A stretch of DNA of 64,000 nucleotides, from positions 1-64,000 of the forward strand of contig JBBQFH010000013.1 in the NCBI GenBank assembly GCA_038321865.1, read 5' to 3'. Below the pieces are notes generated by a model that had not been told where the DNA came from, made no database searches, and was given only the letters and a program-made list of their open reading frames with translations. Below, in pieces: positions 1-10,135 of this stretch. A program made the position numbers and the translations under genes. Position 1 is the stretch's first letter. The number at the start of each line of letters is the position of its first letter. The stretch is from Gemmatimonadales bacterium (lineage in GTDB: Bacteria; Gemmatimonadota; Gemmatimonadetes; Gemmatimonadales; GWC2-71-9).

Positions 1-1271
1 GCCCCGCGGCCGGCGACGTCCTGGCACACGATTCGTTTCTGGATCGGGCCCGGGCCGAGCGTGAACTGGACAACGACGCGGAAGCCCGGCAGGCGCTGGG
101 CGGCTATCTCGTGGCGCGCCTGATCGACCGACTGCTGGAAATCACGGGCGCCGACGAGGATGCGCAGGCCTTCGCGTGGCAGCTCGAAGGGTGCCGGCGC
201 TTCGTCAACGATCTCGCCGATACCTCCGAAGTGTCGCATCTGCGCGGCATCATCGATGCGGTGAACGGGGATCCAGCCTACCGGAACTCCGTCGTCCGCT
301 TCAGCCTCAGCGCCTACGCCTATTACCTGGAACACGAAGGGCGCTGGAGCGAAGCGCTCGATGTGCTGGCGCTCTCGGCACGCGTGTGGGGCGGGGCGGT
401 GCCGCCGCGGGAACTGGCGGCGCTGTCGCTGGTTGTCGGCCGGCTCAACCGCCTGCTGGCGCGGTGGGAACGCGCCAACGACGCCTACCGGCTGGCGGAG
501 GAAGCCGCGCTGGAAGCCGGGGACACCTACTCCGCGTCACGCGCCCGGCTCGGTCGGGGTGCGGTGGCCCGAGGCCAGGGCAACTACCCGCAGGCGCGTG
601 CGCTGGCCGAAGCGGTGATCGCATCGGCCGGCAACCCGGATCAGTCGGACATCCTCGGCCTGGCCTACGGCGATCTGGGTGCCGTGCTCGCGCGCATGGG
701 GCTCAGGATCGAGTCGCTGCAGGCCACCTACCAATGGTTCCTTCGCGCGACCGATCCGGTGCAGCGCGCGGCCGCGCTCGGCGACCTCGGCATCATGCTG
801 GCCCAACTGGGCGCCGCCGACGGCGCGCGTTGCGCCTTCGAGATGGTGGTCGACAGCGGAGCCCGTTTCCAGCTCTCCACCAACGCGCGCCTCGAGTTGA
901 TGCAGATTGAGGGCGCCGCCGGCAATCGCGTGGCCTTCGAGCGTCACCGGGCGGAGGCCAGGAAGCTGGCCGACCGCATGCCCCCCAGCATGGGGGTAGA
1001 TTACCGATTCAAGTCGGGGGCCGGCTTTGCGCAGTTCGGACAGGTCGAACGGGCGCGCACCGTCTGGGAAGAGGCCCGGACGATGGCGGAAGCGCACGGG
1101 CTGAACGACTGGTACTTCAAGGTGGACCAGGCCCTCGCCGGCCTCGAGAAGGCGGTGATGCCCGCCTCCGCGGCGGGCCTGACCGCCCTGGAGCGCGACT
1201 TCGGTGCCGACGCGGTGGTGGCCGGAATCGGCGCGGGGCTCCTGCAGCACAAGGAGTTGGCCCGCGCCTGA
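1..1271 (+). CDS. TPR-like alpha-helical repeat protein, 5' end probably outside the window
   Basis: The frame is open from position 3 (PAAGDVLAHDSFLDRARAE...) through the 111..1271 ORF. It has repeated TPR-like helices (GRWSEALDVL, ARWERANDAYRLA, GNYPQARALAE, ALGDLGIMLAQLG) and no signal peptide or enzyme motif in the visible part. Confidence 0.75.
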   Translation, partial: PAAGDVLAHDSFLDRARAERELDNDAEARQALGGYLVARLIDRLLEITGADEDAQAFAWQLEGCRRFVNDLADTSEVSHLRGIIDAVNGDPAYRNSVVRFSLSAYAYYLEHEGRWSEALDVLALSARVWGGAVPPRELAALSLVVGRLNRLLARWERANDAYRLAEEAALEAGDTYSASRARLGRGAVARGQGNYPQARALAEAVIASAGNPDQSDILGLAYGDLGAVLARMGLRIESLQATYQWFLRATDPVQRAAALGDLGIMLAQLGAADGARCAFEMVVDSGARFQLSTNARLELMQIEGAAGNRVAFERHRAEARKLADRMPPSMGVDYRFKSGAGFAQFGQVERARTVWEEARTMAEAHGLNDWYFKVDQALAGLEKAVMPASAAGLTALERDFGADAVVAGIGAGLLQHKELARA

Positions 1272-1283
1272 CGGCCACCCTTA

Positions 1284-1427
1284 CTAGTGGCAGCGGTTGA
1301 CGGGCCCCTGGGTCTCGCAGGTGGTGTCCAGGGACGGCCGCGGGCCGGTGACATCGGCGCAGGCAGAGGCGAGCGCAGGAACGACCAGCAGGACGGCCAG
1401 GACGACGAGCTTCTTCATGTGAGTCAT
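1284..1427 (-). CDS. 47-aa secreted or lipoprotein peptide MTHMKKLVVLAVLLVVPALASACADVTGPRPSLDTTCETQGPVNRCH
   Basis: GAGGG RBS 5 nt before ATG 1427; KK plus hydrophobic h-region plus ASA-C lipobox-like site; tandem TAG-TAA stops at 1286..1281; it fills the gap between the TPR and AraC genes. Confidence 0.7.
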   Translation of the reverse strand: MTHMKKLVVLAVLLVVPALASACADVTGPRPSLDTTCETQGPVNRCH

Positions 1428-1508
1428 TGTATCCCTCGGGCTGAATTGGTTCAGGGGGCTGCCGGGAACCAATGTCCCGGATTTCTCACGGCTTTATTAG
1501 GCCTTTTT

Positions 1509-1537
1509 TGCGACAAATAGGGCCCCAAGTGCGACAA
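1509..1537. promoter_or_regulatory. TGCGACAA direct repeat with 21-bp period, candidate AraC-type binding site
   Basis: Identical 8-mers at 1509-1516 and 1530-1537 in the AT-rich region between the peptide gene and the AraC gene. Confidence 0.4.
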
Positions 1538-2341
1538 CCACTGATCGTGGCGGCCGTTCCTTCCGAACGGCTCTCCCGGCTTCGCTCCGCCGGCTCGGAC
1601 CAGCACCGCTTTCTGGGTGCGGCAAGCTGGGCGGATGCCGTTGAGGCGATTCGGGTGCGGCCGGTGGTGATGGCCGTGGTAGACCCCATGCTGGGGGGCT
1701 CGCCGCGGACCCACGAGATCGAGCGGCTCAGGCAGCTCTTTCCGTCGCTGCCGCTCCTGGTCTATACGGTGCTGGTGCCCGAAACGGCCGGCGCCCTGCT
1801 CACGCTGGGCCGAGCCGGGATCCGGCGGGCGGTCTTTCACCGCCTGGACGACTCTCCCGAGTGCCTCCGGGAGGCGCTCCGCGGCGAGCTGGAGCAGTCG
1901 GCGTCACGACGGGTGATCTCGGCGCTGTCCGCCCGATTGCCGGGGCTTCCGGACACCGTGATGCAGGCGCTCGAAGGCACCCTCCACGCTCCCGCCTCGA
2001 CGCCGACGGTGTCCCATCTCGCCTATCGCGCGCAGCTCACGCGGCGCGGCTGCGAGCGCGTGTTCGCCAAGCTCGGGCTTCCGTCCCCCGGCGTCGTGAT
2101 GCTGATGGCGCGCCTGCTGTACGCTCATCATCTGCTGCTGGATCCGGGCTACACCGTGGAGGACGTCGCGTTGAAGCTCGGATTCGCCAGGGCACGCACG
2201 CTGCAGATGCATTTCCGGGGCGTGTTCGGACGCACCGCCGGTGATCTCAGGCTCTCCCTGTCGATCGCGGAGACCGTCGCCGTCGTGACCGAGCGATTCT
2301 TTCCGTCCGGTGGTGCCGATGCCCGGGCGGTTGCCTCGTGA
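1529..2341 (+). CDS. AraC-family transcriptional regulator with a receiver-like N-terminal domain
   Basis: C-terminal double HTH (TVSHLAYRAQLTRRGCERVF ... YTVEDVALKLGFARARTLQMHFRGVFGRT). The N-terminal beta/alpha domain looks like a degenerate REC. Start is uncertain (ATG 1472 or GTG 1529). Confidence 0.8.
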   Translation: MRQPLIVAAVPSERLSRLRSAGSDQHRFLGAASWADAVEAIRVRPVVMAVVDPMLGGSPRTHEIERLRQLFPSLPLLVYTVLVPETAGALLTLGRAGIRRAVFHRLDDSPECLREALRGELEQSASRRVISALSARLPGLPDTVMQALEGTLHAPASTPTVSHLAYRAQLTRRGCERVFAKLGLPSPGVVMLMARLLYAHHLLLDPGYTVEDVALKLGFARARTLQMHFRGVFGRTAGDLRLSLSIAETVAVVTERFFPSGGADARAVAS

Positions 2342-2754
2342 CCTTGCGTGTCCTGGTGGTCGATGACGAGCCGGCCATGCGCCGTTCCCTCGAGCGCGCC
2401 CTGGGCGTCGAGGGATACGAAGTTCACACCGCGGCCGACGCGGACTCGGCCTACGCCGTGCTCCAGGAGGTCGAGGTGGACGCGGCGCTGCTCGACCTCC
2501 GGATGCCGCAGCTCACCGGCGAGGCCCTCGCCGTGGCGATGCTGCATCGATGGCCCTATCTCAGCGGCCGGATCATCCTCATGAGCGGCGACCCGTTCGC
2601 CGTGCGCGAGGCATGGCCGGTGGTCCTGCGGTCGTGTCCGCTGCTGGGCAAGCCGTTCAGTCTGGAGTCGCTGCACGAAACGGTGAGCGCCCTCATCACC
2701 CGCGCCGCTGCCGACGCGGCGGCCGGCGCGGTCAAGCGGCGCCGGCGGGAGTGA
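2338..2754 (+). CDS. Single-domain response regulator (REC)
   Basis: VLVVDDE, LLDLRMP, MSG and KPF motifs; GTGA overlap with the upstream stop. Confidence 0.9.
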   Translation: MTLRVLVVDDEPAMRRSLERALGVEGYEVHTAADADSAYAVLQEVEVDAALLDLRMPQLTGEALAVAMLHRWPYLSGRIILMSGDPFAVREAWPVVLRSCPLLGKPFSLESLHETVSALITRAAADAAAGAVKRRRRE

Positions 2755-3410
2755 TCGTGGGATCTCCGATCGTCGCCCCTTCAACCGATCCGCTGGGAAC
2801 GTTACGCGAGTATCGGGCGCTGGCGCCCTGGGGGCTGCGGGATCTGAGCGCCGTCGCCGGCGCCATCCTGGAGGCGTCGGCGGTGGTCCCCATCAACGCC
2901 GCCGCCGCCGCACGGCCGAGCGAACGAACCATTCGTTTTTACGTGATGCGGGGGCTGGTGAGTCCGCCGGACGGCCGCGGGACCGCGGCCGTATACTCCT
3001 ATCGCCACCTGCTGCAGGTACTCGCGGTCAAGCTGCGCCAGATGGAGGGCGCGACGCTGGAGACCATCGCGCGTGAGGCAGCGGGATTTACCGGCGACGT
3101 CGTCGAGCGGCGCGTGGCGCTGGCGCTTGGGGCCTCGCTCGTCCCGCCGAGCGGGCTCCGCCTGTTGCAGGATCCGGGCACCGGGCGCGGCCGGGTGGGC
3201 CGGGCGCTGCAGGGCTGGTTCACCGCACCGGAGCGGACCGATGCGGCCAGCGCGTCGCGCTGCCGCCGCATCCCGGTCGCCGCGGGCGTCGAAGTGCTGA
3301 TGGATGAGCAGCACCCGATTCTGCGGATGGGCGCCGATGCCGACGCGATCGCCGAGACCGTCCGCCGGGCGCTGGCCGCCATGATGCCCGGCGCGCCCGG
3401 CGACGGCTGA
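2751..3410 (+). CDS. MerR-like HTH transcriptional regulator
   Basis: PSERTIRFYVMRGLVSPPDGRGTAAVYSYRHLLQVLAVKLRQMEGATLETI is MerR-type. GTG 2751 overlaps the REC stop (GTGA). Confidence 0.8.
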   Translation: MIVGSPIVAPSTDPLGTLREYRALAPWGLRDLSAVAGAILEASAVVPINAAAAARPSERTIRFYVMRGLVSPPDGRGTAAVYSYRHLLQVLAVKLRQMEGATLETIAREAAGFTGDVVERRVALALGASLVPPSGLRLLQDPGTGRGRVGRALQGWFTAPERTDAASASRCRRIPVAAGVEVLMDEQHPILRMGADADAIAETVRRALAAMMPGAPGDG

Positions 3411-3439
3411 CACTCACGGTTTTCCGGGAAGGGACTGCC

Positions 3440-4015
3440 ATGGGCCTGATCGTCCTGCTGGTGATCGTCGCCGCCGTGTGCTTCTGGATCATGAGCGCCT
3501 ACAACGCGCTCATCTCGCTCAAGAACCAGGTCCACAACGCCTGGAAGCAGATCGACGTCCAGCTGAAGCGGCGGCACGACCTGATTCCCAACCTGGTCAA
3601 TACGGTGACGGGCGCGATGGACTTCGAGCGCGGCACGCTCGAAGCCGTGATTTCGGCCCGGAACCGCGCGGTCGGCGCGGCCGGCGTACAGGACACGGCC
3701 CGGGCCGAAGGCGAGCTCTCGCAGGCGCTGGGGCGCCTCTTTGCGCTGACCGAGTCATATCCCCAGCTGAAGGCGACCGGCAACGTGGCCCAGCTCCAGG
3801 AGGAGTTGACCAGCACGGAGAACAAGATCGGCTTCGCCCGCCAGCTGTACAACGACACGGCGACGCAGTACAACACCCGCCAGATGCAGTTCCCCACGAC
3901 GCTGGTCGCCGGGCTCGCCAAGGCAGCGCCCGCCGAGCTCTGGGAGATCGAGGACGCGGGGGAGCGCGCGGTGCCGGTGGTGGACCTGTCGTCACCGCGG
4001 CCGCCCGCGCCCTGA
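3440..4015 (+). CDS. lemA: LemA family protein
   Basis: N-terminal TM; YNALISLKNQVHNAWKQIDVQLKRRHDLIPNLV; ESYPQLKA; TENKIGFARQLYN. Confidence 0.95.
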   Translation: MGLIVLLVIVAAVCFWIMSAYNALISLKNQVHNAWKQIDVQLKRRHDLIPNLVNTVTGAMDFERGTLEAVISARNRAVGAAGVQDTARAEGELSQALGRLFALTESYPQLKATGNVAQLQEELTSTENKIGFARQLYNDTATQYNTRQMQFPTTLVAGLAKAAPAELWEIEDAGERAVPVVDLSSPRPPAP

Positions 4016-4031
4016 CGCGCTCGGCGCGCCG

Positions 4032-5081
4032 ATGAGCGACGCCAACCTCTTTGCCCAGCAGGAAGCCAACCGCCGCCGCTCCGCGTGGCTCATCGCCGGC
4101 TTCGTCCTCTTCTTCGGCTGGGTCGGCTTCGGCGGTGACCTCGCCTTCGGCCTCCTGACCGCCGATGCGCCGCCCGGCGCCTACCACCACACCGTTCCAT
4201 TCATCGGAATTGTCACCACCGTGATCGCCGCAGTCACCTGCCTCTACGCGTGGGTGCGCGGGGCCGATCGCGTGCTCTGGTCCACCGGCGCGTGGGAGCT
4301 GATCGAGCCGCTCACACCCGATCAGCAGCAGCTGTTCAACGTGGTGGACGAAATGGCGATCGCGTCCGGGCTCAAGCGCCCGCGGATCTGGCTGGTGCCG
4401 GACGACGATCCCAACGCCTTCGCCACCGGCCGCGATCCCGCCACCGCCAGCCTCGCGGTCACCCAGGGGCTGCTCGATACGCTGAGCCGCGACGAGCTGC
4501 AGGCGGTCGTCGCCCACGAGATGGCGCATATCCAGAATTACGACGTGCGCCTGATGACGCTGCTCGCCTCCATCGTCGGGGCGGTCGCGCTGATGTCGGA
4601 TGGGATGGGCCGGATGCTGCGGGGCGGCGCGCGGGCCGGATCGATGGGCGGGGTCGGGCGGCGAATGGGCGGAGGCGGCAAGCGGGGCGGTGCCGGCGCC
4701 CTCGGCCTCATCGTGCTCGTCCTTTGGCTCCTCACCCTGGTGATCGCGCCGATCGTCTCGCGCATTCTGGCGATGGCGGTGAGCCGGAAGCGGGAATTCC
4801 TGGCGGACGCGACCAGCGCGCAGTTCACCCGGAATCCCGGCGCGCTCGCGTCGGCGCTGGAGAAGCTGAATGCCGCCGCCGCTCCGACGGCCTCCATCGC
4901 GAAGGGGACGGCGCATCTCTGCATCGTGGATCCCGCCGCCCAGCGCTTCGACGGGCGCTCGGAGGGGCTGACGGGGATGTTCTCGTCCCACCCGCCGATC
5001 GGCGAGCGCGTGGCCCGCCTGCGGGAGATGGCGTTTCAGCAGCGGCCCGCCGCGCCGACGTCACTGCCGTCGGCCGGGTGA
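4032..5081 (+). CDS. htpX: M48 family membrane zinc metalloprotease (HtpX-like)
   Basis: PNAFATG, HEMAH, SRKREFLAD and SHPP motifs; follows lemA. Confidence 0.9.
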   Translation: MSDANLFAQQEANRRRSAWLIAGFVLFFGWVGFGGDLAFGLLTADAPPGAYHHTVPFIGIVTTVIAAVTCLYAWVRGADRVLWSTGAWELIEPLTPDQQQLFNVVDEMAIASGLKRPRIWLVPDDDPNAFATGRDPATASLAVTQGLLDTLSRDELQAVVAHEMAHIQNYDVRLMTLLASIVGAVALMSDGMGRMLRGGARAGSMGGVGRRMGGGGKRGGAGALGLIVLVLWLLTLVIAPIVSRILAMAVSRKREFLADATSAQFTRNPGALASALEKLNAAAAPTASIAKGTAHLCIVDPAAQRFDGRSEGLTGMFSSHPPIGERVARLREMAFQQRPAAPTSLPSAG

Positions 5082-5090
5082 CGCCGCCCG

Positions 5091-6656
5091 CTAGGCCGGT
5101 GCGCGCGCCGCTCGCCTGCCGCTGACCTGGAAGCCCACCCGGGCGAATTTCTCCCAGTCCGTCTTGCCCCGCCATGCATCCAGCAGTCCGCGGAGCCGCC
5201 AGTAGAGGGTCAGCTGGCGGAAGCCGAGGTTTTCCAGTACCGCATAGGCGAGCAGCAGCATGACGTCGCGCTTGCGGTCGAAGGGCAGGAGGCCGCGCTG
5301 CAGGCGGTCAGCCAGACCCATCCGGAATCGCCAGGCACCGACGAGCACCGCGAAGACGTTGACCAGGATGCCGTAGCCCATGGACGCCAGGAAGAACGCG
5401 AACAGGAATTCGTAGTTGAGGAACCGGTAGCCGGTGAGGATCTCCAGCAGCCAGAACAGCAGCACGAAGGCGTACCCGGCCAGCTCGACCAGCGGGCCGT
5501 AGTATTCGAACACCCAGAAGGTCGGCAGCGCGAACCAGCCGATGCGGCCGTATTTCCGGCGGAACAGCATCGCGCGATGATACATCAGCGACTCCCGGAG
5601 TCCGCGATACCAGCGGCCGCGCTGCTTTCTGAGCGACTCGAAGCTCTCGGGCACCTCGGTCCAGGCCACCGGATGGGGCAGGAACGCGATGCGCTTGTGC
5701 TGCTGCTTGTCCCGCACGTAGCGGTGCAGCCGGACGACCAGCTCCATGTCCTCGCACACCGTCCCGGTGCGCGCGCCGACGTATTCCTGGGTGATCCGGT
5801 GGGTCACGAACGGGGTCAGGTATCCCCCCGCCCGGATGACCGTTTCCTTCTCGAACACGGCGAAGACGCCCGACAGGATCAGGATGGAATCCACCCGGTC
5901 GAGGCCGGTGCGGCCGGTGGTGAAGGAGCGGAGGTATTCGACCATCTGAAAGCGTGCGAGGTCGTGGGCCGGCAGCCCCACGCTCACCACGCGATTGTTG
6001 CGGATCACGCAGCCGTTGGCGATCGCGACCTGCCCGCCCACCGCCACGACGCGCGGATCTTCCTGGATCACGCGCATCAGCTCCTTCAGCGCGCGCTGGT
6101 CGAGAATGGAATCGGCATCGAGCGACACGAAGTAGGGCGCGGTCGACGCATTGATGCCCGCATTGAGCGCGTCGGCCTTGCCCGCGTTCTCCTTGTCGAT
6201 CACGATGACGTGGGCGACGGCGGGAGGCAGCGGGATCGTCGCCTCGTAGAGGGCCCGTACCGGCGCGGTGCCGATCGCCTCGCGGTAGGGCAGATCGCTC
6301 CGCCGGAGGCGCAGCGCGTCCTTCAGGCGCTCGAGCGTGCGGTCGTCCGACCCGTCGTTGATGACCACGATCTCGAATCGCGGGTAATCGCAGTGGATGA
6401 GGTTCATGACGCTGTCGACGATCGTCACTTCCTCGTTGTACGCCGGGACGACCATCGTCAGCGGCTTGGTGTAGCCGCCCGAATCGATGAGATCGAGATC
6501 CTCGACGAAGTGCCCGGCGACGCGCCGGCGCACCTGGCCGGCGGACAGCATGACCAGGATCAGCGTGTAGGTGTTGTACAGCAGGAAATACGCGAGGAAG
6601 AAGGGCTGGACCACCAGCCCGACGCTCACCAGCAGGTGGATCAGCGTGTCCTTCAC
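5091..6656 (-). CDS. Processive GT2 glycosyltransferase (PgaC/IcaA-like)
   Basis: PAYNEE, NDGSDD, GKADALNAG, DADS, EDMEL and QRGRW motifs with N- and C-terminal TMs; GTG 6656 overlaps the HEAT gene stop (GTGA). Confidence 0.9.
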   Translation of the reverse strand: MKDTLIHLLVSVGLVVQPFFLAYFLLYNTYTLILVMLSAGQVRRRVAGHFVEDLDLIDSGGYTKPLTMVVPAYNEEVTIVDSVMNLIHCDYPRFEIVVINDGSDDRTLERLKDALRLRRSDLPYREAIGTAPVRALYEATIPLPPAVAHVIVIDKENAGKADALNAGINASTAPYFVSLDADSILDQRALKELMRVIQEDPRVVAVGGQVAIANGCVIRNNRVVSVGLPAHDLARFQMVEYLRSFTTGRTGLDRVDSILILSGVFAVFEKETVIRAGGYLTPFVTHRITQEYVGARTGTVCEDMELVVRLHRYVRDKQQHKRIAFLPHPVAWTEVPESFESLRKQRGRWYRGLRESLMYHRAMLFRRKYGRIGWFALPTFWVFEYYGPLVELAGYAFVLLFWLLEILTGYRFLNYEFLFAFFLASMGYGILVNVFAVLVGAWRFRMGLADRLQRGLLPFDRKRDVMLLLAYAVLENLGFRQLTLYWRLRGLLDAWRGKTDWEKFARVGFQVSGRRAARAPA

Positions 6657-9600
6657 GCGCCGCCGGCCCACTCCAGCATCGCCGCCACGCGCCCCCGCAC
6701 GTAGGGCACCGGATCGGTCCGCACGACGTCGGTGGCCACCGAATCGCGCACCAGCGCCAGCGCGAGGCCGGCGGCGAGGCGCCGGCGCTCGTCCGGAGCG
6801 CTTCGCGCCGCCTCGCGCAGCTCGGCGAGCGTGCCCGCATCCACGACCGCTTCCGCCGCGTCGGCCGGCGTCACGTCGGCCGGGAGCGCGTCGGCGTCGC
6901 CGCGAAGGATGCGTGCCACCCCCACGGCCGCCCGCACCCGCGCGTCGCCGTCGGCGGCGAGCTCATCGAGCCCCTCTCCGCCGGGAGCCGCCACGAGCAG
7001 CAATGCGATCCCGCGCCTGGTGTCGGCATCGGGATCGCCGAGCATCGTCGCGATCACGTCGTAGCGGCCGGCAGCGGCGGCGGCGCGGGCGGCCTGGCGG
7101 CGCACCGCCGTGACGGGGTCCCGGGCCAGTGCGCCGAGCCGCCGACCGTCGGCCAGATCCGGCCGGGTCACCCAGAGCTGCGCCAGGGTGGCGCGCGCGA
7201 CGGGTGACGTGCTCTCCGACAGCGGATGGAGCAGCGGCGCCAGCCCGGCGTGATGCATCCCCGCCGCCAGGCGAACCAGCACGGGCACCCGGCGCTCGTC
7301 CGCCATCAGCTCCCGCGCCACGGTCTCGAACGCGCCGAACGACGCCTCACTCCGGCCGGCGGCATCCGCCAGCGCCGCCGGATCCTCATCGCTCCGGAGC
7401 GCCCGCAGGATCGCGGGCAGCGTGGCCGCGGGATCGGTGCGGTCGAGCAGCGCGATGCCGGCACGGCGAACGAGCAGGCTCGGATCGGTGACGGCCGCGC
7501 GTGCCGCGCCCAGCAGCGCATCGCCCTCGAGCATCGGCACGACGGCGGCGAGTGCGGCGGCGCGCACCTCCGCGCTCGGATCGCCCCGCAGCAGGCCCAG
7601 CAGCGAGTCGCGGCTGCGCTCGCCCTGAAACGCGGTGAGCGCCGCGACCAGCCGCACGCGTTCCGGCGCCTCCAGCGTGCTGCGCATCCCCTCGGCCAGC
7701 TCGGCCTGCACGCCTTCACGCGATGACGCGGACAGGGCGCGGAGCTCGAGGCTGTGCGACTGACGCAGGCGCAATCCGAGCAGGCGATACTCGGGGTCGT
7801 CGCGCAGCCGTGCCTGCAGCAGCGCGCGCACGTCGCCCTCGTCCATCATCGTCCCGATCCGGCCGAGCATCGTCTCGCCCTCGGACGCGCCGAGTGCGAG
7901 GACCGCCGCGGCGCGCAGTGCCGCCGGCTGGCCCGAACCCGAGGCGGCCACCAGGGCGGCGGCCCCGCCGGGTGCACCGAGCAGGCCGATGGCGAGCGCG
8001 CTGCGTTCGCGCACGAGCGCCGAGGGGTCGTGCGCCAGCATGTCGAGCAGCGCCGGCGCCTGGTCGGACAGCTGCAGCCGGAACACGGCGTCGGCGGCAG
8101 CGGCGCGCACGCCTTCGTCGGGATCCTCCAGCGCATCCGCGACGTACGGCGCGGCGCCGGCGGTCCCGAGGGTGCCGAGCGCGCCGACGGCGGCGATACG
8201 AACGGCCGGCTCGGGGTCCTGGCTCAGCGGGCCAATCAGCGGCAGCGGGGCATCGGCCTTGAGCATGACCAGCGCACGTATCAGGGCGAGCTTGCTGGCC
8301 GAGTCGTGCCCGGTGACGAGAATGTCGAGCAGCGAGCGGACGGCATCGGGCTGGAGCTGGGCCACGGCGCCGACGATGGCCTCGCGCAGGGCGGCATCGC
8401 CATCGCGGAAGGCGCGCAGCAGCGCCGGCACGCTGCCCTCGCCTCCCGTGCGTGCGATCGCGCCGGCGGCCGCGACGCGCACGGCGCTTCCGGTATCACC
8501 CAGCAACGGGATCAGCTCATCGCTCAGGGCGCGCGCGCCGGCTTCCCCGACGGCGGCCGCCGCCGCCGCACGAACGCGTTGATCGGGATCGGCGAGGAGC
8601 CGGCGGAATTCGTCAACGGCGCCGCGATCGCGGGTCGCGCCGAGCGCGCGCGCGGCGGTCGCGCGGACCGCGGGTTCCGGGTCCGCGGTCCGGAGGCGAA
8701 GCGGCGGCCCGACGTCCGCGCCGCCCAGCTCGCCGAGCACGCGGATCGCGGCGGTTCGCACCGGCTCGGCCGGGTCCACGAGCGCCGTGAGCGCCGCGGG
8801 GACGCCGTCGCGCAGGCCGAGGGCGCGAATCGCGTCGAGCGCGCCGGCCCGGACGGTGGGGTCGCGGTCGGCGCCGGCGGTGCGGATCAGCTCGGGGGCC
8901 AGATCGGCGCGCCCGGCGCGTTGCGCCGCGCGAACCGTCGCCGCGCGTACCGCCGGCGATGCGTGCACCAGCAACTCGGCCAGGAGCTCCCGCGCCCCGG
9001 CGACGGCGAACTTGAGCAGCACCTCGTCCGCGTCGCCGGGGCCGGCCGCGTCGATCGTGCCCAGCAGTCGCTGCAGGAAGCCGAGCCGCTCGAGCGCGAT
9101 CGCCGAGCGGCTGCGAATCTCGTGGTCGGGATCGTCGAGCGCGACCAGCAGCGCGGGCTCCGCGGCGTCACCCACCTGCTCCAGCGCCTCGACGCTCCGC
9201 ATCCGGACCCACCAGGCGGGATCACCCAGGGCGCGAACCAGCCGGTCGATGACGTCGGGATCGCCGAACTGGCCGAGTGCGCCCGCGATGCGCGCACGGA
9301 CGAACGGGGCCGGATCGGTGAGCAGGTGCTCCAGGAGGTAGGGAACGGCGCGGCCGTCACCCAGCCGGCCGAGTGAGGTGGCGGCCTTGCCGCGCACCTC
9401 ATCCTCGAGATCGCCCAGCGTCCGGACCAGCACGGGAAACGCGCGCTTGGCCCCGACGTCTCCGAGGATGTTGGCGGCCCACGCCCGGCCCGGCTGGCGG
9501 CCCGGCTCCTCGAGGAAGGCGATGAGCGGGTCCACCACCAGGTCGCCGTGGCGGGAAAGGATGTCGGCGATGCGCGGCGCCAGCCACACTTCGGACGTCC

Positions 9601-10135
9601 TCAGCGCCTCGATCAGCGGCCCGACGGCGCGGGGGTCGGCGATCCGGGCCAGCGCGCGCAGCGCGATGTCGCGGACATCGGCGTCCTCGGTCCGGGTGGC
9701 CTGCACCGTGTCGAGCAGCACCGGCACCGCTTTGGCGCTTCCCACCCGCCCGAGAAGCTCGGCGGCAAAGGCGCGCTCGCGCCACCGCCGGGCGCGCCGC
9801 AGCCGTTCGATGTACTTGTCCACCAGGGCGAGCCGGTCGTACGCGTCGAGCAGCCAGGCGGGGCGGTCGGTCGAGCTGCGCGCCTGCTCTTCGAGGACGG
9901 CTTCGAGTGCTTCGAGATCGTAGAGCGTCCCGGCGCGGAGGATCGCGGGATTCAGCAGCTCGCGCTCGGATTGTGCCAGGCCGGCGACGAGGTCGCGATA
10001 CAGCCCCTTCCGCACGGCCAGCCGGCGCTCGAGCCGTGTCAGGTACGCCGTGTAGAAGAACCATGTGGCGATCGCCACGACACCCAGTGCGACCATCGAG
10101 GCCGCCGCCATCAGGATGATCGTGAGCGCGCTCAT
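6653..10135 (-). CDS. Membrane-anchored HEAT/PBS-lyase repeat protein, 1160 aa
   Basis: N-terminal TM, then many L-x-D-P-x-x-x-V-R-x-x-A-A-x-A-L-G repeats to the C-terminus. Confidence 0.9.
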   Translation of the reverse strand: MSALTIILMAAASMVALGVVAIATWFFYTAYLTRLERRLAVRKGLYRDLVAGLAQSERELLNPAILRAGTLYDLEALEAVLEEQARSSTDRPAWLLDAYDRLALVDKYIERLRRARRWRERAFAAELLGRVGSAKAVPVLLDTVQATRTEDADVRDIALRALARIADPRAVGPLIEALRTSEVWLAPRIADILSRHGDLVVDPLIAFLEEPGRQPGRAWAANILGDVGAKRAFPVLVRTLGDLEDEVRGKAATSLGRLGDGRAVPYLLEHLLTDPAPFVRARIAGALGQFGDPDVIDRLVRALGDPAWWVRMRSVEALEQVGDAAEPALLVALDDPDHEIRSRSAIALERLGFLQRLLGTIDAAGPGDADEVLLKFAVAGARELLAELLVHASPAVRAATVRAAQRAGRADLAPELIRTAGADRDPTVRAGALDAIRALGLRDGVPAALTALVDPAEPVRTAAIRVLGELGGADVGPPLRLRTADPEPAVRATAARALGATRDRGAVDEFRRLLADPDQRVRAAAAAAVGEAGARALSDELIPLLGDTGSAVRVAAAGAIARTGGEGSVPALLRAFRDGDAALREAIVGAVAQLQPDAVRSLLDILVTGHDSASKLALIRALVMLKADAPLPLIGPLSQDPEPAVRIAAVGALGTLGTAGAAPYVADALEDPDEGVRAAAADAVFRLQLSDQAPALLDMLAHDPSALVRERSALAIGLLGAPGGAAALVAASGSGQPAALRAAAVLALGASEGETMLGRIGTMMDEGDVRALLQARLRDDPEYRLLGLRLRQSHSLELRALSASSREGVQAELAEGMRSTLEAPERVRLVAALTAFQGERSRDSLLGLLRGDPSAEVRAAALAAVVPMLEGDALLGAARAAVTDPSLLVRRAGIALLDRTDPAATLPAILRALRSDEDPAALADAAGRSEASFGAFETVARELMADERRVPVLVRLAAGMHHAGLAPLLHPLSESTSPVARATLAQLWVTRPDLADGRRLGALARDPVTAVRRQAARAAAAAGRYDVIATMLGDPDADTRRGIALLLVAAPGGEGLDELAADGDARVRAAVGVARILRGDADALPADVTPADAAEAVVDAGTLAELREAARSAPDERRRLAAGLALALVRDSVATDVVRTDPVPYVRGRVAAMLEWAGGA

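Follow-up and report, generated by a model that had tools for sequence, protein, structure and literature searches.

A conserved TPR protein–lipopeptide–AraC cassette in Gemmatimonadota, predicted to form a Rap–Phr-like peptide switch

The window analyzed here, a 64,000-nucleotide (nt) stretch from a Gemmatimonadales bacterium (GenBank assembly GCA_038321865.1, contig JBBQFH010000013.1, positions 1 to 64,000), opens with genes for a tetratricopeptide repeat (TPR) protein, a 47-amino-acid (aa) lipopeptide precursor, and a regulator of the AraC type. This cassette is real and is conserved across relatives within Gemmatimonadota; its function is put forward as a prediction. The operator and regulon assigned to the AraC protein are well supported, and the signaling step is predicted. 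Taken together, the evidence leans slightly toward a unit that works as a Rap–Phr-like peptide switch acting on the AraC protein, whose N-terminal domain appears to be a pseudo-receiver. A first-pass annotation had proposed an RRNPP-like module at this locus. That proposal gains strong genomic support from near-universal linkage, a selected peptide tail that tracks TPR clades, tandem tails (6 of 127 peptides), a fold like that of Rap and NprR, and a predicted operator at the peptide promoter. The possible disulfide ring that it noted is not the conserved signal.

The TPR gene (positions 3 to 1271, plus strand) has a frame that is open at the contig edge, its 5' end being cut. The peptide gene lies on the minus strand (1427 to 1284) and encodes signal residues 1 to 22, lipobox Cys23 (codon at 1359 to 1361, minus strand) preceded by Ala-Ser-Ala, a D-x-T-G-P linker, and a variable tail. 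The tail core, E38 to N44 (1296 to 1316, minus strand; ExQGxxN type), is the candidate signal and is flanked here by C37 and C46, which enclose 8 residues. The ORF (open reading frame) ends in TAG followed by TAA, 12 nt separate its stop from that of the TPR gene, and a ribosome-binding site, GAGGGA (1432 to 1437, minus strand), lies 4 nt ahead of the ATG, with similar sites in relatives. Divergent to the peptide gene, araC (1529 to 2341, plus strand) encodes a 270-aa protein with an AraC helix-turn-helix (HTH) domain (Pfam HTH_18), its start being placed at GTG 1529. A gene for a single-domain CheY-like receiver (2338 to 2754, plus strand; Pfam Response_reg) overlaps the araC stop, and its product retains the canonical acidic pair, Asp, Ser, and Lys, as read from the sequence. 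The three-gene layout and the peptide ORF features (ribosome-binding site, signal and lipobox, double stop, and 12-nt gap) agree with the first-pass annotation, which had also expected gene callers to miss the peptide; in fact both the NCBI and the Logan gene sets include it. A Logan contig matched positions 7 to 2367 with 0 differences, and that run is possibly a source of the same DNA. The genome holds a single copy of the TPR family.

Linkage was assessed in 134 TPR matches scoring 100 bits or more, mostly best-scoring places rather than a random sample, after 21 duplicates and one unpublished locus were left out. A convergent lipobox ORF of 28 to 95 aa was found in 128 of the 131 TPR loci with a complete 3' end, which is what a search for small signal-peptide ORFs beside TPR homologs, suggested at the outset, had been meant to reveal. 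When the same filter was applied to the window's own genome as a control, 8 of 1,153 long ORFs passed, the studied locus among them; peptide orientation was tallied for convergent ORFs only. The stop-to-stop gap between the peptide and TPR genes had a median of 21 nt (127 loci). An araC gene was present downstream in 120 of 128 TPR loci with enough flank, and because three of the eight misses keep araC upstream on the same strand as the TPR gene, the TPR–AraC pair outlives rearrangement. At L092, L093, and L043 the cassette is rearranged, araC preceding the TPR gene on the same strand. Two loci (L102 and L104) hold a TPR gene and a peptide without an AraC match. A CheY-like receiver gene follows araC in 86 of 114 loci and is thus a frequent fourth member of the cassette. 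Among 17 AraC-profile loci away from a TPR gene, none of the 15 that could be evaluated had a lipobox peptide or TPR match. Five weaker TPR matches were also inspected: three retain the full triad, including the complete single-contig genomes G031 and G073, where it has diverged, one (L239) has TPR and AraC genes with no peptide passing the filter, and one (G208) has neither. Orphan TPR genes without a nearby peptide or AraC, resembling orphan Raps, were seen at L018 and L160.

TPR matches were present in 109 of 201 genomes of the order, and the TPR profile matched 177 of 401 genomes of the phylum at an E value of ≤1e-20 (93/166 in group f1, 69/93 in f2, 8/70 in f7, and few elsewhere). Both tallies include one unpublished genome (G090), on which no claim rests. 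The phylum profile search did not find the TPR protein in many of the genera searched, and some genera carry up to five matches per genome, with differing tails and operators. Named relatives are Gemmatimonadales or Gemmatimonadota metagenome-assembled genomes; at an E value of ≤1e-30, 841 representatives were recovered, without taxonomy. A tblastn search of plasmids with one f2 TPR protein gave no match.

The peptides of relatives are 39 to 63 aa long (127 peptides from about 110 genomes) and are labeled hypothetical in databases; a search of NCBIfam with the peptide returned no family match. The basic N-region, hydrophobic core, and lipobox qualify the peptide for Sec export by our own filter (not SignalP). 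The lipobox Cys is invariant among 50 aligned peptides, and a linker of the T/S/A-x-P type follows the lipidated Cys in 122 of 127. Pooled ratios of nonsynonymous to synonymous substitution rates (dN/dS) for the mature part were 0.13, 0.13, and 0.21 in three groups, and the mature peptide is under purifying selection. The signal part gave 0.40 and 0.68 in two groups and 0.15 in the third, so that the signal sequence is the least constrained part of the peptide in two of the three. The tail follows the TPR tree (FastTree, midpoint rooted; support values were not inspected), with ExQG present in 31 of 34 peptides of the studied TPR clade and in 0 of 93 outside it. This tracking suggests that the tail may serve as the ligand of the TPR protein. 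Six of 127 peptides carry their tail in two to four tandem copies. In the f4 peptides the linkers are long and acidic and end in three Asn.

The first-pass annotation had pointed to a possible 10-residue disulfide ring between C37 and C46. A Cys pair follows the lipobox in 81 of 127 peptides, no Cys is found there in 46 of 127, and only 8 of 34 peptides of the studied clade have the pair, so a ring as the family-wide signal was rejected. ExQG is kept without a ring in 24 of those 34 peptides; the ring is optional and ExQG is the kept element. The expectation of a conserved or covarying C terminus holds insofar as the tail is selected and tracks TPR clades, and fails for the Cys ring. The commonest Cys-loop size, 7 residues (35 of 81), equals the repeat unit of the tandem tails at L091 and L095.

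The TPR protein, estimated at about 430 aa, lacks in the window roughly 10 to 15 N-terminal residues compared with full-length relatives (~420 to 440 aa). It matched Pfam TPR_12 (E = 1.2e-6) at 29.1 bits, just below the 30.1-bit cutoff, and no NCBIfam family. A structure model (predicted local distance difference test score, 93.8) is all helical, with four N-terminal helices, about seven helix pairs, a C-terminal helix, and no HTH; the earlier description of a TPR-only protein left out the added helices at both ends. No hydrophobic 19-aa segment scoring >1.8 was found in 127 TPR homologs, and the protein is a predicted cytoplasmic peptide receptor. Whole-chain template modeling (TM) scores were 0.55 for NprR, 0.50 to 0.54 for Raps, 0.44 for apo RapI, and 0.35 to 0.48 for LGN/Pins. 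VIA Z scores were 25.7 for APPBP2, 22.6 for the phi105 Rap, 22.5 for MalT domain III, 21.8 for the pLS20 Rap, 20.9 for LGN, and 20.4 for RapH, Raps filling three of the top six rows. Sequence identity to Rap-type proteins is about 8 to 12%, and no sequence-level homology is shown. The modeled protein thus resembles Rap in architecture, with a fold match that is best by TM score and is not unique.

Two proteins, P0098 (644 aa; cluster of 5) and P0295 (687 aa), are in-frame fusions of a TPR protein of the studied family with an extracytoplasmic function (ECF) sigma factor (Sigma70_r2 and r4_2) and share 69% identity. These fusions tie the TPR family to transcription control and are possibly one-chain peptide-sensing sigma factors. 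No AraC–TPR fusion was found, one longer match (P0274) looking frameshifted; such a blank is a weak negative.

A direct repeat with a 21-bp period (1496 to 1537, plus strand; half-sites 1506 to 1515 and 1527 to 1536) extends over the start of araC and the −35 region of the promoter serving the peptide gene and is the predicted AraC operator. A repeat of at least 8 of 10 bases at 21-bp spacing lies between the peptide and araC genes in 104 of 120 loci, versus 3 of 120 in shuffled sequences. With a matrix built from 60 relatives' sites, a scan of the window's own genome hit three places (50.5, 44.5, and 36.5 bits), and a shuffled genome gave none above 12 bits. A clade-variant operator pattern occurred in 40 of 151 family genomes, and its reversed control in 0. 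In a hand tally of the 86 genomes with a TPR result, 22 of 50 TPR-positive genomes had the pattern, compared with 2 of 36 TPR-negative ones; the count includes kin, which are not independent, and overlooks cassettes whose operator is of another variant. In both TPR-negative exceptions, the operator stands ahead of a cassette-type araC at a contig edge.

Promoter geometry was compared at 67 of the 77 listed operator places, of which 26 belong to cassettes, 4 belong to truncated cassettes, and 37 are remote; one of the remote sites (L185) is probably a repeat-array artifact, and some are homologous. In the −10 box predicted for the peptide promoter (1471 to 1476, minus strand), the second and sixth bases of the hexamer are A and T, at positions outside the search pattern; both bases are present in 26 of 26 cassette sites. 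At the same distance from the repeat, the remote sites have the A in 28 of 37, the T in 27 of 37, and both in 23 of 37. A generic sigma-70 scan of positions 1200 to 1700 found no promoter, as expected with a weak −35 element. AraC class II activation operates at tandem direct repeats, as at araI1-araI2 of araBAD. The cassette likewise combines an HTH_18 regulator encoded divergently with two half-sites 21 bp apart next to or over the −35 region, at a fixed distance from the −10 box, which places it, with binding predicted, in the AraC/XylS class II; it differs in having a pseudo-receiver, not a sugar-binding cupin, as the AraC input domain and in its dispersed, lineage-specific targets. There is fairly strong reason to predict that the AraC protein binds the repeat and activates these promoters.

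The N-terminal domain of the AraC protein is predicted to have a receiver fold. The Asp is retained in 85 of 87 sequences and the Thr in 63 of 87, and there is no acidic pair and no conserved Lys, an Arg lying near the Lys place in 53 of 87. Judged from these residues, phosphorylation is unlikely as the input, and since the acidic pair and conserved Lys are absent, this pseudo-receiver would need another one. The first-pass annotation had started araC at ATG 1472, a start now rejected in favor of GTG 1529: that ATG falls inside the predicted −10 box, conservation in its frame begins only near residues 20 to 24, and database relatives start at the position of GTG 1529. The gene thus likely starts at GTG 1529, within the second operator half-site. 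The start codon (GTG here, TTG in close relatives) has no clear ribosome site, and its position inside the half-site, together with that lack, suggests self-repression. A second family of pseudo-receiver AraC proteins, in which the recognition helix is conserved, was found at L038 (4267 to 5124 of that locus; contig C6 of the studied genome, G000) and at L244 to L248 and L253 to L257. AraC proteins of this C6 type occur in all 10 TPR-negative f1 genomes tested, without a TPR gene, peptide, or clear 21-bp repeat nearby. The C6 paralog is disfavored as the operator binder, 9 of the 10 TPR-negative genomes having paralogue-level matches only and no operator match.

In addition to the cassette site, the studied genome has two remote operator copies. 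The best operator copy (L166, 8418 to 10745 of that locus; contig C3) precedes a gene for a 179-aa Cys-rich protein, followed by a DUF5128-type beta-propeller gene and a Cys-rich paralog with 49% identity, so that two Cys-rich proteins with signal-like N termini flank the propeller gene. Neither matched a Pfam or NCBIfam family, and the Cys-rich target had no Atlas match. At the other copy (L167, 8410 to 12990 of that locus; contig C37), the operator is followed by a short inverted repeat in the leader, possibly an RNA structure, and then by a gene for a 1,489-aa NACHT protein that resembles antiphage HyoA and EruA below their cutoffs. A serine-hydrolase gene lies on the other side of this operator copy. 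In relatives, remote sites precede genes for receivers or hybrid kinases (7 sites), TonB receptors (3 sites), an outer membrane protein barrel, S8, S41, and LysM-M15 peptidases, an RCC1-repeat protein, a CHAT protein, and GmrSD. Several unnamed proteins at these sites have N termini that look signal-like by eye, and some sites have no clear gene. At L234 (G265, contig C1), an integrase/transposase gene stands directly behind the operator-bearing promoter, before a lipoprotein-like gene.

Several known systems share parts of this design. PlcR exerts positive feedback on its peptide gene and controls secreted proteins. NprR–NprX and PlcR–PapR share the TPR fold (TMq 0.55 for NprR) but carry their own HTH, whereas the cassette leaves DNA binding to the AraC protein, a chain of its own; the one-chain counterpart is seen in fusions P0098 and P0295. 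Enterococcus cCF10 and cAD1 are lipoprotein-derived pheromones with an intracellular TPR-like receptor, the signal sequence itself being the pheromone. The lipoprotein precursor and TPR-like intracellular receptor recur here; the difference is that selection acts on the mature tail and that the signal sequence is the least constrained part in two of three groups, as described above. Rap–Phr receptor and pheromone genes share a strand; in the 128 cassette loci found, the peptide gene lies downstream of the TPR gene on the complementary strand.

Rap–Phr systems of the RRNPPA family (RapF–ComA–PhrF, RapH–Spo0F, and the pLS20 Rap, of Bacillus, its plasmids, and phages) resemble the cassette in an HTH-less receptor, about 400 aa long, that combines TPRs with a helical N-terminal part (PMC9765709, PMC3246441, PMC11343458), and the pheromone gene lies directly downstream of the receptor gene (PMC9765709). 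Further likenesses are a small exported propeptide encoded beside the receptor, its C-terminal unit variable and at times duplicated (duplicated pheromones are known from Rap propeptides [PMC11343458]), orphan receptors, and a response-regulator-type protein as the likely target, as when RapF inhibits ComA (PMC3246441). The cassette differs in its diderm host and in that all filter-passing propeptides are of the lipobox type, compared with a minority of 211 of 2,734 in RRNPPA systems (PMC9765709). It differs also in its convergent peptide gene with its own predicted AraC-driven promoter, in the adjacent pseudo-receiver AraC as the likely target, and in the optional Cys ring. The five-point RRNPP signature comprises a propeptide of 10 to 100 aa, Sec export, and a receptor of 250 to 500 aa with TPRs as a direct neighbor (PMC10075063); the cassette fits it, with a 47-aa peptide of predicted Sec export (by our own filter) beside a TPR protein of ~430 aa. 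It is not filed as an RRNPP member because the host envelope, convergent layout, general lipid anchor, and separate pseudo-receiver AraC differ.

In the proposed switch, the AraC protein would activate the peptide gene and remote targets via the 21-bp repeat. The precursor would be lipidated at Cys23 and sent outward by Lol, and a tail of roughly 7 to 8 residues would be cut off, return via an oligopeptide ATP-binding cassette transporter, and bind the TPR groove. Lsp, LolA, and six SBP_bac_5 genes are present in the genome, the last of which offer a possible uptake route. The TPR protein would control the AraC protein by contact, a role as anti-activator being somewhat preferred to one as co-activator; peptide-bound TPR would then stop inhibiting the AraC protein, which would put the peptide gene under positive feedback. 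A second target of the TPR protein may be the CheY-like protein. A negative loop, in which the peptide switches the circuit off, may operate instead.

A broader version of this scheme is tentative, the balance tipping slightly against it. It would make the cassette a lineage-coded cell-to-cell quorum system of Gemmatimonadota with an intracellular receptor across two membranes. An anchored precursor would shed a 7- to 8-residue tail, a Rap-like TPR protein of independent origin would read it, and the pseudo-receiver AraC or a fused ECF sigma factor would switch on a regulon that changes rapidly and comprises secreted proteins, surface receptors, kinases, and anti-phage-like genes. Several findings weigh against the proposed switch. 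Neither a processing protease nor an importer is encoded in linkage with the cassette, and the lipid anchor and two membranes make release and reentry harder than in Bacillus. Near-identical tails in same-genome paralogs (L020/L116 and L112/L118) weaken a strict specificity code, and the agreement of tails with TPR clades could come from shared descent alone. On the structural side, Foldseek E values tie, with LGN having the best; APPBP2 tops the VIA ranking and MalT domain III is level with Rap; and the sequence-profile match to NprR reached only E = 0.002, behind generic TPR proteins. Remote targets vary between genomes, even inside a genus, a variability that would suit an accessory social or defense program. 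Coevolution of the operator core with one residue of the first recognition helix looked strong in raw concordance (108 of 115 and 114 of 115) and was set aside, being not significant with only two informative independent pairs each (P = 0.5).

The invariant lipobox Cys, which implies that anchoring matters, the many envelope or secreted proteins among remote targets, and the lack of a cassette-linked exporter or protease would also fit an envelope or export sensor private to the cell, in which the tail never travels. The TPR protein would read unexported precursor or periplasmic-protease fragments and adjust surface and secreted genes, with the AraC protein again activating the peptide gene. 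We consider this unlikely: lineage-specific tails, tandem tails, and multiple matches per genome with different tails and operators suit identity signals better than a housekeeping sensor, and the TPR protein was not found in many of the genera searched. It is more doubtful still that the small lipoprotein is itself an output (a surface tag, adhesin, or entericidin-like peptide), with no returning signal and with the TPR protein as its chaperone or as an independent AraC coregulator. The shared operator with other secreted proteins, the three TPR loci without a peptide, and the conserved post-Cys linker motif point that way. However, other targets are not common to genomes, yet the peptide stays tail to tail with the TPR gene, even where no AraC match was found (L102 and L104), and it is hard to see why a mature chain of 25 aa would need a cytoplasmic chaperone of 430 aa. 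A last alternative keeps the signal and reroutes the output: the TPR protein would act on the receiver at 2338 to 2754, as RapH does on Spo0F, for relay to the AraC protein or hybrid kinases. The receiver's frequency behind araC and its canonical residues, RapH among the fold matches, and the seven remote sites ahead of receiver or hybrid-kinase genes are in keeping with this route. We nevertheless regard it as improbable, as 28 of 114 cassettes, including all five f7 loci, have no detected receiver there and the AraC protein is the more constant partner. The switch with the AraC protein as target is the reading we retain.

Genes for a MerR-like HTH protein, LemA, and an M48 peptidase trail the cassette (2754 to 5081), in an order identical in five f1 relatives (L031, L032, and L034 to L036). 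Beyond them, on the minus strand (5091 to 10135), are a glycosyltransferase-like membrane gene and a 1,160-aa repeat-rich gene, both judged by eye.

A literature search found no paper on the cassette; most subscription papers and supplements, including the RRNPP_detector tables, lay outside it. A term search of PMC12700828 found no mention of Gemmatimonad. RRNPP-type signaling has been described for Bacillota and their mobile elements (PMC10075063, PMC9765709). Direct starting points from the analysis are a candidate core of the signal, a predicted operator whose promoter geometry could serve in a reporter, a set of named target genes, and two complete genomes (G031 and G073). If the proposed switch is true, a parallel system exists in an abundant, mostly uncultured diderm phylum, and peptide signals would reach cytoplasmic receptors across an outer membrane.

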